A stretch of DNA of 16,358 nt from Phormidiaceae cyanobacterium CTOTU46636. Lineage in GTDB: Bacteria > Cyanobacteriota > Cyanobacteriia > Cyanobacteriales > Aerosakkonemataceae. Shown here piece after piece: positions 3,538 to 12,712 of this stretch. Made by a program: the position numbers and the translations under genes. The notes beneath the pieces are model-generated. The model saw only the letters and a program-made list of their open reading frames with translations, ran no database searches and was not told the DNA's origin. Numbering within the stretch: the stretch's first letter is position 1; every line of letters begins with the position of its first letter. The stretch is from contig DALYKA010000154.1 of assembly GCA_031969595.1 (NCBI GenBank), positions 1 through 16,358 on the forward strand, in the 5' to 3' direction.

Positions 3538-3845
3538 GATAATACTCCTATTAAATCTAATTAAATAACCACCCCTCAGCCGCTGGCCTTTCAGTACCTG
3601 TAGCGTGTAACGCTACAAGAGATAGAATCAATAGCATTCGGGTTTGTTCCCCACAATTGGCTAGAGTAATGTTTTAATTTCACCAATGCAGTTCTCTATG
3701 AATTTAACTTTTGAGAAAGCTTGTTACCAGTCGCTTTTTTTTGTGACACATAAATGTGGTAACATATAATACGTAACTCAAAAGGGTGAGTTAAAAAATT
3801 TTTTATAATGTTAAATCTGAGATTTTGAAATTAATAAAGGAAAAA

Positions 3846-3905
3846 CTCCCGCAGTCGGTTGATATGCTGGGGGAGTTGTGTTATAGGGGTAGGATGCGAT
3901 CGCGC
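3846..3905. repeat. Copy 1 of a short dispersed hairpin repeat, CCGCAGTCGGT-stem/loop-TTGTGTTATRGGGGTAGG followed by a HIP1 site. It probably also serves as a rho-independent terminator for the minus-strand ORF 3942..4136.
   Basis: The stem is aactccc...gggagtt. On the minus strand the stem is followed by TTTCCTTTATT. Related copies are at 5711-5762 and 5796-5835. Confidence 0.4.
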
Positions 3906-4571: not shown

Positions 4572-4712
4572 TGAATCATTAAGCGGATTGAGAGCGATCG
4601 CGTGTCGATGTTGGATGCGATCGCCCAGTTGTGTTTTGGGGTTGCGATCGCATGTATAGCACAATTGCTAAAATGATGGCGATCGCTCACTAGAATTTGG
4701 CAGCAAACTAAT

Positions 4713-5186: not shown

Positions 5187-5762
5187 ATGACAGATTTAAT
5201 TGTTGTCTATGATGCCAATGTCTTGTATTCAGCACCTCTACGGGATTTTTTGGTTGAGTTAGCACTTACCTCTGTTTTTGAGGCTCGGTGGACAGAGGAA
5301 ATTCACTCGGAATGGATGAGAAATGTACTGCAAAACCGTCCAGATCTGACGCTGGAACAGGTTACAAGAACCAAAAATTTGATGAATGCACACGTTAAAA
5401 ATTGTTTGGTGACAGACTATGAAGAATTAATTCCACAATTGCAGCTTCCAGATCCAGGCGATTCTCATGTCTTCGCAGCGGCAATTCGTTCTCGAGCGGG
5501 TTTCATCGTCACTTTTAATCTGAGTGATTTTCCGAACGAGATTCTTGCACCGTACAACATTCGAGCAATACACCCCGATAGATTTATCTTACGCTTGCTT
5601 GACCTTAATTCCGACGCAGTTTGCCAAGCCGCCCAAACACAACGGCTGCGGCTAAGAAATCCACCGAAAACGCCTGATGAGTATCTGGAAACGCTGATAA
5701 ATCAAGGACTGCCGCAGTCGGTCAGTCTGTTGCGGCAGTTGTGTTATGGGGGTAGTTTCTGA
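5187..5762 (+). CDS. PIN-domain protein (PIN_3-like), putative toxin.
   Basis: The N-terminus LIVVYDANVLYSAPLRDFLVELAL is typical of the first PIN strand and catalytic Asp. The HTH+PIN_3 gene-pair architecture is a known type II toxin-antitoxin arrangement. Confidence 0.6.
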   Translation: MTDLIVVYDANVLYSAPLRDFLVELALTSVFEARWTEEIHSEWMRNVLQNRPDLTLEQVTRTKNLMNAHVKNCLVTDYEELIPQLQLPDPGDSHVFAAAIRSRAGFIVTFNLSDFPNEILAPYNIRAIHPDRFILRLLDLNSDAVCQAAQTQRLRLRNPPKTPDEYLETLINQGLPQSVSLLRQLCYGGSF

Positions 5763-6256: not shown

Positions 6257-6514
6257 ATGAGAAATTCAATGAAACAAAATGAATCTCGAAATCCTCTAGA
6301 GCTGCTTGAAAAGTTGCTTGACCATCCTCATGGTTTTGAATTAGCAAAGATGGTTGATCGGCTATACAACGATGTTGATATACAGCCACATCGCCAGCTT
6401 GTTGCTAAAGCCCTCACTCAAGCTGAGAGTTTAGGGATGGATAAAAGACAAATACCGCATTTCATGAGCATGACTAGCGATGAAATTCGGATGTGGATGA
6501 CTCAGAATTCTTAG
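6257..6514 (+). CDS. Hypothetical protein of 85 aa.
   Basis: The ORF is followed by a perfect palindromic hairpin at 6530-6553. No domain recognised. Confidence 0.35.
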   Translation: MRNSMKQNESRNPLELLEKLLDHPHGFELAKMVDRLYNDVDIQPHRQLVAKALTQAESLGMDKRQIPHFMSMTSDEIRMWMTQNS

Positions 6515-6529
6515 CTGAGAAGCACTCAC

Positions 6530-6553
6530 CAGCTGGGAAATAAATTTCCCAGC
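6530..6553 (+). terminator. Perfect 24-nt palindrome (agctgggaaat aa atttcccagct) downstream of ORF 6257..6514. A second long hairpin follows at 6571-6636.
   Basis: An 11-bp perfect stem read from the sequence. There is no clean U-run after it, so it may act as a structural or bidirectional terminator in the convergent gap with cobN. Confidence 0.3.
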
Positions 6554-6660
6554 TAATAGCTAAAGTTGTACGGGCGAAGCATTCGGTGCGAAATCTTTTG
6601 GCGAAACCAACAATTTGTCGTCCGAATGCTTCGCCCCTACGTGGACTGAAATTGCTCATC

Positions 6661-6745
6661 AGTCCTCTTGAGAGGACTTTAGCTATTAGCCAGGGATTTT
6701 AATCCCTGGCGGGTAATGCCATTGATGCAAGATTTCAGAATAACA
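6661..6745. repeat. Copy A of a short dispersed structured repeat: hairpin agtcctcttgagaggact, then hairpin ccagggattttaatccctgg, then a GGCGGG..ATGC..TGATGCAAGATT tail.
   Basis: A near-identical copy B lies at 12631-12712 in the same orientation. The second hairpin shows a compensatory change between copies: ccaggga/tccctgg in copy A against ccagggg/cccctgg in copy B. Confidence 0.6.
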
Positions 6746-6796
6746 ATATTGGCTAGTTAGATGGTGCGTTACGCTATCGCTAACGCACCCTACCAA

Positions 6797-9700: not shown

Positions 9701-10519
9701 GGGTATCAGTCCTGCTTGCTCAAAGTAGTTAATTAATTTGGGAATATAAGGCTGTTTGGTTACAACGTGTTTGCGATAAAGCAAAATTCCAACTACTGGT
9801 TTGGTAATTGGTAATTGGTAATCGGTAATTGGTTGTGTGGGTTTTCTCTGCTGATACCATTCCAGATATTTGCGGGGAGATTCAAAATAGCCTTGATAAT
9901 CGGGATGTAACAAACCCATATTGGGTGTTTCGATAGGGGGCGGAATTTCTCCTACTTTTAATTCCAGATATTTTTCGGCGATTGTCCAAAACATAGCGGC
10001 GACATTATCTGTGCCGCCAGCATTCCAATAACCGTAAATAATTAGCCAGTTTCGCAAGTCTTGGACTTTTTGTACTGGGATGTATTTTAATAGTTTCGGC
10101 CCCACTTTCAGGAAGCTGATATAACCGGCGAGTTTGTCTTCTTCTTTGCCGTTGCTGAATTTATCTAAAATGAATTTAACGGGTTTGGGCATTCCTTTGG
10201 GTTTATCACCAATTTTGAAGCCACCAATTTGAGTTAAACTCATCAATTCTAAGGCGGACTCGAACACGAGGCGGATGGGGATTTGCTGCACTCTTTCGCG
10301 CAACCACATCACTTGGTCATAATCAAAGATGAGACTGGCGAAGAAGACATCCGCGCCTTCGAGGGCGTCGGCGACGACTTCCGGTGAAATTGTGAGGGCG
10401 CGATCGCTAAACACCCGCACATCCAAGTCGGAACAGCGGGAAGTCGCTAACTGTGCAGCTTTCCGGTACAAGTCAGCGTTGAAGGATTCAAACCCAGCGA
10501 TCAGAACAATGCGTTTCAT
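6797..10519 (-). CDS. cobN: Cobaltochelatase subunit CobN, CobN/Mg-chelatase H family. The track ORF extends to 10609, but the likely start is the Met of MKRIVLIAGFESF at 10519.
   Basis: A protein of 1240-1270 aa with CobN-family architecture along its whole length. The 30 codons upstream of MKRIV look non-conserved. Confidence 0.8.
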   Translation of the reverse strand: MKRIVLIAGFESFNADLYRKAAQLATSRCSDLDVRVFSDRALTISPEVVADALEGADVFFASLIFDYDQVMWLRERVQQIPIRLVFESALELMSLTQIGGFKIGDKPKGMPKPVKFILDKFSNGKEEDKLAGYISFLKVGPKLLKYIPVQKVQDLRNWLIIYGYWNAGGTDNVAAMFWTIAEKYLELKVGEIPPPIETPNMGLLHPDYQGYFESPRKYLEWYQQRKPTQPITDYQLPITKPVVGILLYRKHVVTKQPYIPKLINYFEQAGLIPLPIFINGVEGHVAVRDWMTTQYEITQRQLGNIETPSLSNEAAQVDAIVSTIGFPLVGGPAGSMEAGRQIEVARRILTAKNIPYIVAAPLLIQDIHSWTRQGIGGLQSVVLYALPELDGAIDTVPLGGLVGEDIYLIPERVKRLTGRLKNWIKLRQKDALERKVAILLYGFPPGYGAVGTAALLNVPRSLIKLLQALKEQGYTIGELPEDGEELIRRVKAADEPQIRSKKEEPVIDSILDGNEYNTVNAKTLDKWLGYLLTTRIEKQWKSLTSSGIKTYGDEYYIGGIELGNIWIGVQPPLGIAGDPMRLMFERDMTPHPQYAAFYKWLQNEFQADAVVHFGMHGTVEWLPGSPLGNTGYSWPDILLGDIPNLYIYAANNPSESILAKRRGYGVLISHNVPPYGRAGLYKELVALRDLIAEYREDPQKNYALKEAICKKVVDTGLDADCAFEDAKKLGIAFTPENVRMFSAHAFNEYLVKLYEYLQVLETRLFSSGLHTLGEPPTDEELASYFDAYFGEEDNEPPRRQERQEEERRIGDLLGQNTEELRNLLRGLNGEYIPPAPGGDLLRDGAGVLPTGRNIHALDPYRMPSAGAYERGREIARKIIDQHLEEHGEYPETVAVMLWGLDAIKTKGESLGILLELVGAEPVKEGTGRIVRYELKSLAELGHPRIDVLANLSGIFRDSFVNIIELLDDLFQRAADADEPEEMNFIRKHVLGMRSQNIPNPTARLFSNPAGDFGSLVNEQVTDGNWESGEELAGTWESRNAFSYGRNDKGQSRKQVLNQLLQTTRRVVQEIDSVEYGLTDIQEYYANTGGLKKAAEKQQGKKVNASFVESFSKDTTPRNLEDLLRMEYRTKLLNPKWADAMANQGSGGAYEISQRMTALIGWGGTADFTDNWVYDQAADTYALDAEMAKKLREANPEAFRNIVGRMLEAHGRGFWEADPEKLQKLRELYELTDEELEGVTI
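9801..9834. repeat. Heptamer tandem repeat (TTGGTAA x3, TCGGTAA, then ttggtt, which is AATTACC on the coding strand) embedded in-frame inside cobN. It encodes the peptide PITDYQLPITK.
   Basis: Read directly from the sequence. It is the same heptamer family as the intergenic tract at 341-410. Confidence 0.7.
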
Positions 10520-10723
10520 ACCCCAAACCCTGAAATATTTCTTTACTTTAATTTTAAGATGGCTTTCAGGTGATGGGCTAGGACAGGCAAGATGCCCATC
10601 CCACAACAAGTTAGGTAGTCACCTTATGCACGACATCTCGCCTACCCCAAGGTTTGATAATAGAAAATGATCGTACACTCGCTCAGAGTTTTACTTTGCG
10701 CTGGAGCGCGATCGCATTTCTCT

Positions 10724-11233: not shown

Positions 11234-11632
11234 TTACCACTTTCCATACTCTTCCTGATACTCTTTAATTGCTGCTTTTAGTGCTTCATTGGGTTCGGGT
11301 GGGTTTTCAATGGCTGATGCAAAGATTTCCCAGTCGCGATCGCTCAATACAATTTGCTCTATTTCTGGAGTTTCTTTGGCTAAAGAGAGAGCTATTTTAA
11401 GCAGATACTCGCTCAGAGTTTTACTTTGCGCTGCGGCAGCTTTTTCGAGAGTTTCTTTGTCTTGTTGGCTGAGGGTTAGCTCGATATTTTCTGCAACTTC
11501 CGCTTTTTGCTTCTCAATTCGCCGTTTCTGGATGAGTTCAATCAGTAAGTCTTGGTCTTCCGGGGAAAGTGCCTCAACGTATTCGATAACGGTTTGTAAT
11601 GCGATCGCGTTGCTCATGTTTTTAGTCTCCAA
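11234..11632 (-). CDS. DUF1778 (TacA-like ribbon-helix-helix) antitoxin carrying a roughly 50-aa N-terminal extension that resembles addiction-module-component domains.
   Basis: The C-terminal half IELTLSQQDKETLEKAAAAQSKTLSEYLL...VLSDRDWEIFASAIENPPEPNEALKAAIKEY matches the DUF1778/TacA consensus, including the D-W-x-x-F ... PP-x-PN-x-AL tail. The N-terminal part VIEYVEALSPEDQDLLIELIQ looks like the short cyanobacterial addiction-module-component family. Confidence 0.75.
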   Translation of the reverse strand: METKNMSNAIALQTVIEYVEALSPEDQDLLIELIQKRRIEKQKAEVAENIELTLSQQDKETLEKAAAAQSKTLSEYLLKIALSLAKETPEIEQIVLSDRDWEIFASAIENPPEPNEALKAAIKEYQEEYGKW

Positions 11633-12485: not shown

Positions 12486-12584
12486 TCAAGAAACTAGATG
12501 CTGACTATGCTAGGGATAGTTTTGATTGAGATTTTGCGCCTGTGGTGTTGTCCCGCCGTGGACTCAAGTCCACGGCTAATAGCT

Positions 12585-12620
12585 CAAGTCCACTTAAGTG
12601 GACTGAAGAGCGCTTTTTTT
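12585..12620 (+). terminator. Hairpin (agtccactt aagtggact) followed by gaagagcgc and a run of 7 T, resembling an intrinsic terminator on the plus strand. A second hairpin ccgtggac-tcaa-gtccacgg lies just upstream at 12556-12575.
   Basis: Read directly. No obvious upstream plus-strand gene ends here, so this could terminate an intergenic sRNA or simply be part of the repeat cluster. Confidence 0.25.
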
Positions 12621-12630
12621 GGTCAGCATT

Positions 12631-12712
12631 TAGTCCTCTTTAGAGGACTTTCGCTATGAGCCAGGGGTTTAAACCCCTGGCGGGCTATGCAACTGATGCA
12701 AGATTCTCAATT
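12631..12712. repeat. Copy B of the dispersed structured repeat described at 6661-6745. It overlaps the annotated start codon of the NACHT ORF.
   Basis: agtcctctttagaggactttcgctatgagccaggggtttaaacccctggcgggctatgcaactgatgcaagattc aligns with agtcctcttgagaggactttagctattagccagggattttaatccctggcgggtaatgccattgatgcaagattt. Confidence 0.6.

Follow-up and report, generated by a model that had tools for sequence, protein, structure and literature searches.

A 16,358-nucleotide stretch of the genome of Phormidiaceae cyanobacterium CTOTU46636 (contig DALYKA010000154.1; hereafter the window) carries two copies of a structured repeat, termed A and B, which are probably arms of non-autonomous mobile elements that resemble REPINs, the paired form of repetitive extragenic palindromes (REPs), and that have a Y1 (HUH) transposase as their partner. 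The system is best filed among the REP/REPIN-Y1 transposase kind: it would work much as REPINs do with REP-associated tyrosine transposases (RAYTs), with an enzyme that lies outside the RAYT class, in a subclass related to IS200 that earlier work had not connected with any repeat. Because a Y1 transposase gene is linked to the arms, the covariation seen in their hairpins has a DNA-level reason and can be explained without a regulatory RNA. A previous sequence-only reading of the window, which had described the two copies as an 80-nt repeat, overlooked both the pairing of each copy with an inverted partner and the transposase gene.

Within the window, a repeat search recovers positions 6661-6734 and 12632-12705 as a 74-nt direct repeat of 86% identity. 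Hairpin 1 (AGTCCTCTTnAGAGGACT) and the tail GGCGGG-NN-ATGC-NNN-TGATGCAAGATT are common to both copies, and for hairpin 2 copy A has GCCAGGGATTTTAATCCCTGGC and copy B GCCAGGGGTTTAAACCCCTGGC; the two hairpins, the tail and the A-T to G-C compensatory change in hairpin 2 are all present as the sequence-only reading described them. Shuffled sequence folds less stably than copies A and B (RNA z = -3.5 and -4.0), with every shuffle beaten. Four occurrences of the core motif stand in the window, where chance would give 0.07, and a covariance model (R1) that recognizes copies A and B at ~82 bits (E ~6e-20) returns four arms from the window and no other significant match. The repeat is thus real, but its copies are not free-standing 80-nt units: when the intergenic regions are aligned to their own reverse complement, each copy proves to be the right arm of a larger imperfect palindrome, an inverted doublet (coordinates in Table 1). 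Both doublets are intergenic. Doublet B folds as single-stranded DNA (ssDNA) at -44.2 kcal/mol (z = -7.9), its left and right arms differ in stem sequence, and it is ~95% conserved at the orthologous loci L063, L135 and L136. The left arm of doublet A has kept its linker and hairpin 2 (6531-6554) whole, and its hairpin 1 is split, with a remnant GTGGACT at 6641-6647; over 184 nt, doublet A shares 92% identity with a composite element of Microseira wollei (L030). Together with locus L043, the window yields three doublets in ~24 kb of the source genome.

The arm is a ~60-nt module of the form AGTCC-hairpin-GGACTT-NN-GCTAT-N-AGCC-hairpin-GGCGG. A scan of a species-representative genome collection with the pattern GGACTTNNGCTATNAGCCNNGG matched at least 120 stretches. 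Among the matches listed, more than 115 are cyanobacterial loci that carry the module, spread over many orders (Microcoleus, Microseira, Phormidium, Symploca, Caldora, Coleofasciculaceae, Nostoc, Anabaena, Calothrix, Stigonema, Leptolyngbya PCC 6406, Phormidesmidales and others) with up to six loci in a single genome, and four are chance matches without hairpins, from Pseudomonadales, an alphaproteobacterium, a deltaproteobacterium and Dehalococcoidales. Typical arms with the same hairpins and cyanobacterial-looking flanks also stand in L105 (labelled as an Acetobacteraceae metagenome-assembled genome), L039 and L092 (labelled 'uncultured bacterium'), which are probably mis-binned or unlabelled cyanobacterial DNA. 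Viral contigs gave zero matches to the module, and hence no sign of a phage vector; a plasmid collection gave two weak matches without annotation, and a literature search by motif strings returned unrelated human primers only.

Hairpin halves that lay outside the search pattern are complementary in almost all cases. Pairing holds in 95.5% of the 2,108 stem cells of 124 arms; shuffles reach 82.5%, and sliding the partners gives 28-51%. In the same arms, 286 cells are changed on both sides from the commonest pair versus 94 in shuffles, a figure that 0 of 500 shuffles reached. A second set of 58 distinct arms comes from the Y1-gene loci described below (most fetched through the protein, three loci from the pattern scan); it shows 95.8% pairing, double-sided changes in 12 of 17 pairs and 159 such cells versus 44, in an alignment that was fitted to the model and is therefore to be judged against the slid controls. 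Fixed by the search pattern in the first set, the linker GGACTT-NN-GCTAT-N-AGCC is nearly constant in the second. Hairpin types are discrete and are combined within arms in many ways. The sequence-only reading had taken the compensatory change as a mark of selection on the structure; with further copies brought under the covariance model the pairing is kept, and such selection holds at the level of the family. As a separate observation, the 3' half of hairpin 2 followed by GGCGGG forms tandem arrays in L022 (~6215 onward, GGCGGGTAATTCCCT), L112 (~4420 downward, GGCGGGCT) and L119 (~2135 onward), which suggests slippage or repeated processing there.

Whatever the starting pair, transitions yield G:T and A:C mismatches at equal rates. 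Our count for hairpin 2 across 171 arms is 1,630 Watson-Crick pairs, 47 G:T, 5 A:C and 28 other mismatches, and this excess of G:T over A:C identifies the strand that reads hairpin 1 to hairpin 2 (5' to 3') as the folding one. A cruciform in double-stranded DNA is disfavoured, as is protein binding to a palindrome in that form, because neither would produce a G:T bias. The arms are, moreover, organized in a consistent way: among 93 neighbouring pairs less than 400 nt apart, 84 are in -/+ orientation (the other orientations number 5, 3 and 1), with hairpin-1 ends facing, tails pointing outward and usually 0-20 nt in between. Arms of one doublet are 40% identical at variable stem positions, as against 46% for random arm pairs, and hairpin-2 stems are identical in 0 of 26 doublets; pairing within the arm at the same positions is 98%. 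Because the two arms are unlike and each pairs so well internally, the conserved structures are the local hairpins and not a long left-right hairpin, and the non-identity of the arms would also prevent a long perfect palindrome. Only 2 of 136 elements lie inside long open reading frames (ORFs).

Clustering of the ORFs in the loci brought out one small family, at a median of 34 nt from an arm, with members in L018, L033 and L042; these proteins of 147-175 aa match Pfam Y1_Tnp, and each gene has arms on both sides. For an unbiased test, ten homologues were fetched by protein sequence only and picked by taxon and contig extent, without an arm criterion. They come from Microcoleus sp. FACHB-53, Coleofasciculus sp. 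H7-2, Anabaena catenula, Microcoleus sp. EPA2, Cyanosarcina radialis, a Leptolyngbyaceae strain, Heteroscytonema crispum, Limnoraphis robusta, Merismopedia glauca and a metagenomic 5.8-Mb contig. All ten have arms of 45-78 bits directly beside the Y1 gene and nowhere else in the ~5.4-kb loci, which is far beyond chance, given that the background in pattern-selected loci is about one extra element per 45 kb. In total, Y1 genes are flanked by arms at 13 loci from at least 11 taxa, often on both sides or by arrays. The layout in L123, L126 and L128 is a single arm (-), ~100 nt, the Y1 gene, ~15 nt and a single arm (+), in other words a doublet with a central gene; other Y1 loci have doublets on both sides or doublet arrays. 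None of the Y1 loci examined has a tnpB gene. Each Y1 protein occurs in one genomic context (P0183 is found on 25 contigs, and the four places displayed share neighbouring genes), and synteny is conserved across genera, between Microcoleus sp. FACHB-53 (L121) and Limnoraphis (L129-L132). TPR-CHAT proteins, kinases, ABC transporters and Uma2 proteins encoded near arms were considered as partners and rejected as not specific, being common multi-copy cyanobacterial families.

In L121 and L129-L132 the Y1 gene has a PAPS_reduct/HNH pair on one side and an AAA_23/SMC_N gene on the other, a context like that of a defence island, and relative to them it points in opposite directions in the two genera, as if the segment between the arms had been flipped. 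Upstream of the Limnoraphis Y1 gene (2501) stand ~2, 4, 7 or 8 tandem doublets, depending on the sample (L129-L132), whose arms overlap by ~36 nt and have one central hairpin 1 in common; the Y1 proteins of these samples are 100% identical, which indicates that the array expands and contracts rapidly.

The Y1 enzyme is encoded by a solo gene and is ~147 aa long. It scores 87-103 bits against NF033573, the NCBIfam model for IS200/IS605 transposases (cut-off 55), and its nearest solved structures are the IS608 and ISDra2 TnpA proteins, with E. coli TnpA-REP absent from the PDB matches. An alignment of 13 proteins displays DHIH, WQ and Y-V-x-N-Q-K-x-H-H, of which HuH, WQ and N-Q-K-x-H-H are invariant and the tyrosine is present in 12 of 13; P0134 (L121, 2501-2944) has serine where the other 12 carry the catalytic tyrosine (…AVDSVKNQKAHH) and may be inactive, and intact doublets still flank its gene. 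Subclass 1.2 of Quentin et al. (2018, PMC6006769) comprises low-copy cyanobacterial proteins of ~148 aa with DH[IV]H, WQ and YIKNQKEHH / Y---Q--HH, devoid of insertion-sequence properties or IS200-type ends and only 36% identical between copies within a genome. Judged by its motifs, length, low copy number and cyanobacterial distribution, our enzyme matches this subclass. What Bertels et al. (2017, PMC5581495) named "RAYT-like IS200 Group 3", which has no duplicates and unusually abundant flanking 16-mers, may be the same clade. Among the papers searched, no later one links subclass 1.2 to a repeat. The REP of the N. punctiforme RAYT npun_F5543 (GTTGGGTTTCGTTCCTCAACCCAAC; Bertels & Rainey) was also considered and differs in sequence from the module.

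A mechanism of the following kind could account for these features. The unit would consist of two hairpins, with stems free to vary as long as they remain complementary, separated by the almost invariant linker and followed by GGCGG; two inverted units with facing hairpin-1 ends would make a doublet of ~150-190 bp, equivalent to the arm-Y1 gene-arm arrangement minus the gene. The Y1 enzyme, on the model of IS608 TnpA and E. coli TnpA-REP, would bind one strand of ssDNA at the folded hairpins, the hairpin feet and the linker, for instance at replication forks, and would cut and rejoin nearby, with the result that gene-less doublets spread into intergenic DNA. The anatomy of the arms, their covariation and strand asymmetry, the doublets, their intergenic sites and the presence of arms around the Y1 gene are observed; the binding, cleavage and mobilization by the enzyme, as well as the ssDNA nature of the folded form, we infer. 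Selection would operate at the copying step: since only copies that still fold could be mobilized, the family would keep its pairing and resident copies would drift, and covariation across the family would coexist with decay in place. Compared with doublet B, the orthologous copies in L063, L135 and L136 differ in stems and linker by uncompensated changes throughout (in L136, C to A in the left hairpin 2; in L063, scrambling of the right hairpin 2 in its 5' half; and in L135 and L136, T to G in the left linker), and this decay of resident copies fits the mobilization model. The doublets of the window would then be resident passengers, A in the convergent gap downstream of cobN and B upstream of the NACHT gene.

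Several observations weigh against this account. The link between Y1 gene and arms was seen in genomes other than the window's own, and folding as RNA and folding as ssDNA are not separable from sequence alone. Among the loci compared there is no doublet transposition event and no filled-versus-empty orthologous doublet site, the latter being expected because all were selected for the motif; target-site duplications in Phormidium copies are inconsistent (4 bp, 5 bp or none), and no consistent cleavage site can be defined. The curated RAYT model NF047646 gives only 22-30 bits against its cut-off of 80, and subclass 1.2 has been listed as 'no' for REP (Quentin et al. 2018, PMC6006769). Finally, the GGTGCAAGATnTnAG type of tail also bounds short elements with a single arm or with other cargo, and given these shared tails part of the mobility may belong to a different system.

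Shared tails are central to an alternative that we regard as unlikely, namely that the doublets are classical miniature inverted-repeat transposable elements (MITEs), moved by a DDE-type transposase acting on outer terminal inverted repeats (…nAnATCTTGCACC / GGTGCAAGATnTnAG…), with the module as cargo and the Y1 adjacency as secondary. The window tails end in TGATGCAAGATT(C)TCA; ends of this GGTGCAAGATnTnAG type recur on single-arm elements of Stigonema (L069, L087, L100) and on ~135-nt elements with quite different internal hairpins (L055, L099), and a backbone with these ends occurs in L025 both with and without the module. However, no transposase gene bounded by these ends was found: longer autonomous elements bounded by GGTGCAAGAT ends turned up only as chance matches or, in L025, as two separate small elements around a TauE gene; the sole long candidate, that of L025, encloses this exporter gene. 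MITE families normally keep their ends and vary inside, whereas the module has at least three unrelated, lineage-specific types of tail beyond GGCGG, namely GGTGCAAGATnTnAG (the window's type), CTTAAGTTGACACCAATG…GCCCCTAC and ATGTTGGTAATGACAAGCCCTAC. The Y1-flanking doublets in L121 and L042 carry the same TGCAAGAT tail, so the tail may itself belong to the Y1 system, and no consistent target duplication was seen. The broader suggestion of the sequence-only reading, that the repeat is MITE-like, is supported.

It is improbable, too, that the Y1 gene represents an ordinary insertion sequence of the IS200 type, one that inserts specifically at the centres of existing doublets and has the arms as its target and not its substrate. 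Central insertion predicts exactly the arm(-)-gene-arm(+) order of L123, L126 and L128, the protein scores as IS200/IS605 in NCBIfam, and the window itself shows another repeat inserted into a hairpin 1. Yet such a sequence should not have one genomic context per protein, as P0183 has in the four places displayed from its 25 contigs, nor keep its synteny across genera; tnpB is absent from the loci, and the published description of the subclass, with its low copy number, 36% identity within a genome and lack of IS200-type ends, speaks against an ordinary insertion sequence.

Quite improbable is a role of the module as RNA (a bidirectional terminator, 3'-end stabilizer, processing site or small RNA), with selection on an RNA fold as the cause of covariation. 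The hairpins are stable, the tolerance of G:U far above A:C is the classic signature of structure on one strand, and the distal arm of a doublet is sense for transcription arriving from either side. By position, 43 elements lie between tandem, 23 between convergent and 17 between divergent genes, and in tandem pairs the element is nearer the 3' end of the upstream gene (median 59-86 nt) than the start of the next, as a 3'-end function would have it; the 17 divergent cases do not suit one, and single arms are antisense to incoming transcription more often than sense (23 versus 9). No T-run follows either hairpin, hairpin 2 being followed directly by GGCGGG, and a terminator scan placed no site at 6650-6745 or 12540-12720, so the terminator proposed by the sequence-only reading does not stand. 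Its other proposal, a small regulatory RNA, fares no better: Rfam 15 gave no match at the gathering score and only far sub-threshold generic hairpins in E-value mode, the orthologous copies gather uncompensated changes, and the orientation of single arms is that just described. Nor does an RNA account for a linker that does not vary or for arms on either side of a gene for a DNA transposase.

A lack of any structural selection, with template switching in quasi-palindromes keeping the stems perfect or with host architectural proteins binding them as double-stranded palindromes, is highly improbable: all stems are near-perfect palindromes, the discrete hairpin types occur in many combinations and hairpin 2 3'-halves have expanded in tandem in L022 and L112, but neither version predicts that G:T should outnumber A:C 9:1 on one strand, that a non-palindromic linker should stay invariant from one cyanobacterial order to the next or that a Y1 gene should be associated, and decay at orthologous sites means that correction is not automatic.

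The REPIN-like reading can be set against the known systems. Like REPIN-RAYT systems, or REPtrons (Nunvar 2010; Bertels & Rainey 2011; Ton-Hoang/Messing 2012), the family consists of short extragenic palindromes, mostly inverted doublets with a short spacer, that flank an HUH/Y1 gene which is single-copy in the contexts seen and has no tnpB; it also shares with them long persistence, apparently vertical inheritance and hairpins that are kept while the stem sequence varies. Unlike them, the enzyme has Y-x-x-N-Q-K-x-H-H where class-2 RAYTs have Y-x-x-x-N-P, and the module is ~60 nt with two hairpins and a conserved linker, compared with the single 20-40-nt hairpin of a REP. Its consensus AGTCC…GGACTTnnGCTATnAGCC…GGCGG lacks a GTAG or CGTC tag; GTAG tags do mark two other repeats in the window, at 6568-6640 and 6763-6793, and some tail subfamilies have them at their outer ends. 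The arms of a doublet carry different stems and do not form the single long hairpin of a REPIN, and the module spans many cyanobacterial orders with its linker almost unchanged. In contrast to the 'no' entered under REP for subclass 1.2 (Quentin et al. 2018, PMC6006769), the module stands beside the gene in 13 of 13 loci examined. With IS200/IS605 elements the system shares the transposase family and a single-strand logic that agrees with the bias of G:T over A:C. IS200/IS605 subterminal hairpins are recognized as structure. Both end hairpins of such elements lie on the same strand, without inverted repeats, whereas the arms here are inverted, (-) upstream and (+) downstream (L123, L126, L128); unlike those insertion sequences, too, the system shows no multi-copy identical elements and no tnpB, and its gene lies in conserved synteny.

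Two further comparisons concern repeats of other kinds. The small dispersed repeats SDR4-6 of Nostoc, the subject of work by Elhai and colleagues in 2008, are reportedly 21-27 nt long, with a shared predicted structure and compensatory mutations, and are said to be often embedded in minitransposons and nested in one another; to our knowledge, no transposase has been linked to SDRs. SDRs are found only in Nostocaceae (PMC5861425), and by this description the module, which occurs in Oscillatoriales, Coleofasciculales, Leptolyngbya-like and unicellular taxa, is set apart from them. The bacterial interspersed mosaic elements (BIMEs) of E. coli are similar in forming inverted pairs of two distinct hairpin types, sometimes in arrays (here L124, L129-L132 and L042), and different in that their units are single GTAG-tagged hairpins. 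BIMEs are bound by the host proteins IHF and gyrase.

More tentatively, and with the balance tipping slightly against it, subclass 1.2 could be a second, independent "domesticated" lineage that maintains cyanobacteria-wide two-hairpin REPIN-like elements, largely vertically across orders, with a recognition code made up of structure plus invariant linker and with doublet arms kept non-identical. If so, REPIN-type partnerships between replicator and host would have arisen more than once, and a ligand would be at hand for an enzyme class without a known DNA substrate. The REPIN-like reading would likewise gather thousands of unannotated intergenic cyanobacterial hairpins into one family, offer a low-copy transposase subclass described without associated repeats a candidate DNA substrate that is testable with defined oligonucleotides, and add, outside Proteobacteria, a second system in which long-lived intragenomic replicators of the REPIN type can be studied.

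Doublet B also bears on the annotation of its neighbour. Public annotation starts the NACHT ORF (P0001, 965 aa) at ATG 12687, inside the tail of copy B, a start that the sequence-only reading had already held suspect. In two of the three orthologous loci (L063, L136) an in-frame TAG separates this ATG from the conserved MSQTMASRS (MSQTMASRSVRIDG), the upstream 16 codons vary (D/N, RF/PL, W/C/stop, G/A) and the next 20 residues are nearly invariant. These comparisons bear out the suspicion: the 12687-12734 extension is probably not translated, and the true start is most likely ATG 12735 or ATG 12747. Homologues are annotated variously from MQLMQ…, MQNSQ…, MSQTM… or MASRS…, and elements of this kind, which create false start codons here and in the homologues beginning MQLMQ… and MQNSQ…, should be masked before gene calling. 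As an aside, in NACHT genes with the same DUF2726 neighbour (12735-15584 versus L135 and L136) the upstream region and the first ~100 residues are ~95% conserved and the whole proteins are 56-57% identical, by which comparison the NTPase and repeat part appears hypervariable.

Table 1. Repeat arms, doublets and associated features in the window.
Feature	Position	Strand	Context or basis
Doublet B, inverted arm pair, tails outward	12525-12718	.	Between DUF2726 gene (-) and NACHT gene (+); self-complementarity alignment
Right arm of doublet B (copy B)	12623-12696	+	R1 82.2 bits, E 5.9e-20; fold
Parts of right arm B	Hairpin 1 12632-12649; invariant linker 12650-12659; hairpin 2 12660-12681; GGCGGG and tail to ~12712	+	
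Left arm of doublet B	12540-12613	-	R1 75.0 bits, E 4.2e-18; sequence
Parts of left arm B	Hairpin 2 12555-12576 (GCCGTGGACTCAAGTCCACGGC); hairpin 1 12587-12604	-	
Doublet A, inverted arm pair	~6502-6740	.	Convergent gap between ORF 6257-6514 (+) and cobN (-); self-reverse-complement alignment
Right arm of doublet A (copy A)	6652-6725	+	R1 82.1 bits, E 6.2e-20; fold
Parts of right arm A	Hairpin 1 6661-6678; linker 6679-6688; hairpin 2 6689-6710; tail to ~6740	+	
Left arm of doublet A	6517-6599	-	R1 34.6 bits, 21-nt insertion in helix 1; alignment
Nested GTAG-tagged REP doublet, 73 nt (GTAC-GGGCGAAGCATTCGG ... CCGAATGCTTCGCCC-CTAC)	6568-6640	.	Inverted repeat; in loop of left hairpin 1 of doublet A
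16-codon N-terminal extension of annotated NACHT ORF, probably not translated	12687-12734	+	In-frame TAG in L063 and L136 orthologues

The REP doublet nested in doublet A's left arm is a member of another repeat family and has replaced ~8 nt of the hairpin 1 loop. The Microseira wollei element (L030, 1335-1410) has the identical nested-insertion junction at a different locus, and the window genome's orthologue of that locus (L043, ~95-115) is empty; because of this recurrence of the junction opposite an empty site, the second family seems to insert site-specifically into the hairpin 1 loop. A further GTAG-tagged REP hairpin lies at 6763-6793 (reverse complement GTAGGGTGCGTTAGCGATAGCGTAACGCACC), just downstream of the cobN stop codon, which brings the convergent gap by cobN to three nested or adjacent repeat families.

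Other repeats are scattered through the window, which has no tRNA or tmRNA genes; its GCGATCGC palindromes and heptamer repeats are typical of filamentous cyanobacteria. Tandem heptamers ATTAGCA/ATTACCA occupy 327-417, upstream of a RlaP-like gene, and the same heptamers recur at 9800-9833 in the cobN coding region, 97% complementary (TTGGTAA…). Before the gene for a peptidoglycan-binding protein lies a ~215-nt palindromic element (1714-1928; 25-nt arms 96% and 33-nt arms 85% complementary) that contains the AGAAACCCGGTT motif, which also adjoins arms in L056 and L119. A 59-nt dispersed repeat of 78% identity (3834-3892 and 5697-5755, also 4627-4648) ends in GTTGTGTTATnGGGGTAG, with GCGATCGC after it, and apparently represents one further family. 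The 27-nt sequence ACTCGCTCAGAGTTTTACTTTGCGCTG is repeated exactly, in direct orientation, at 10677-10703 and 11407-11433, one copy past the 3' end of a GNAT (TacT-like) toxin gene and the other inside a TacA-like antitoxin gene.

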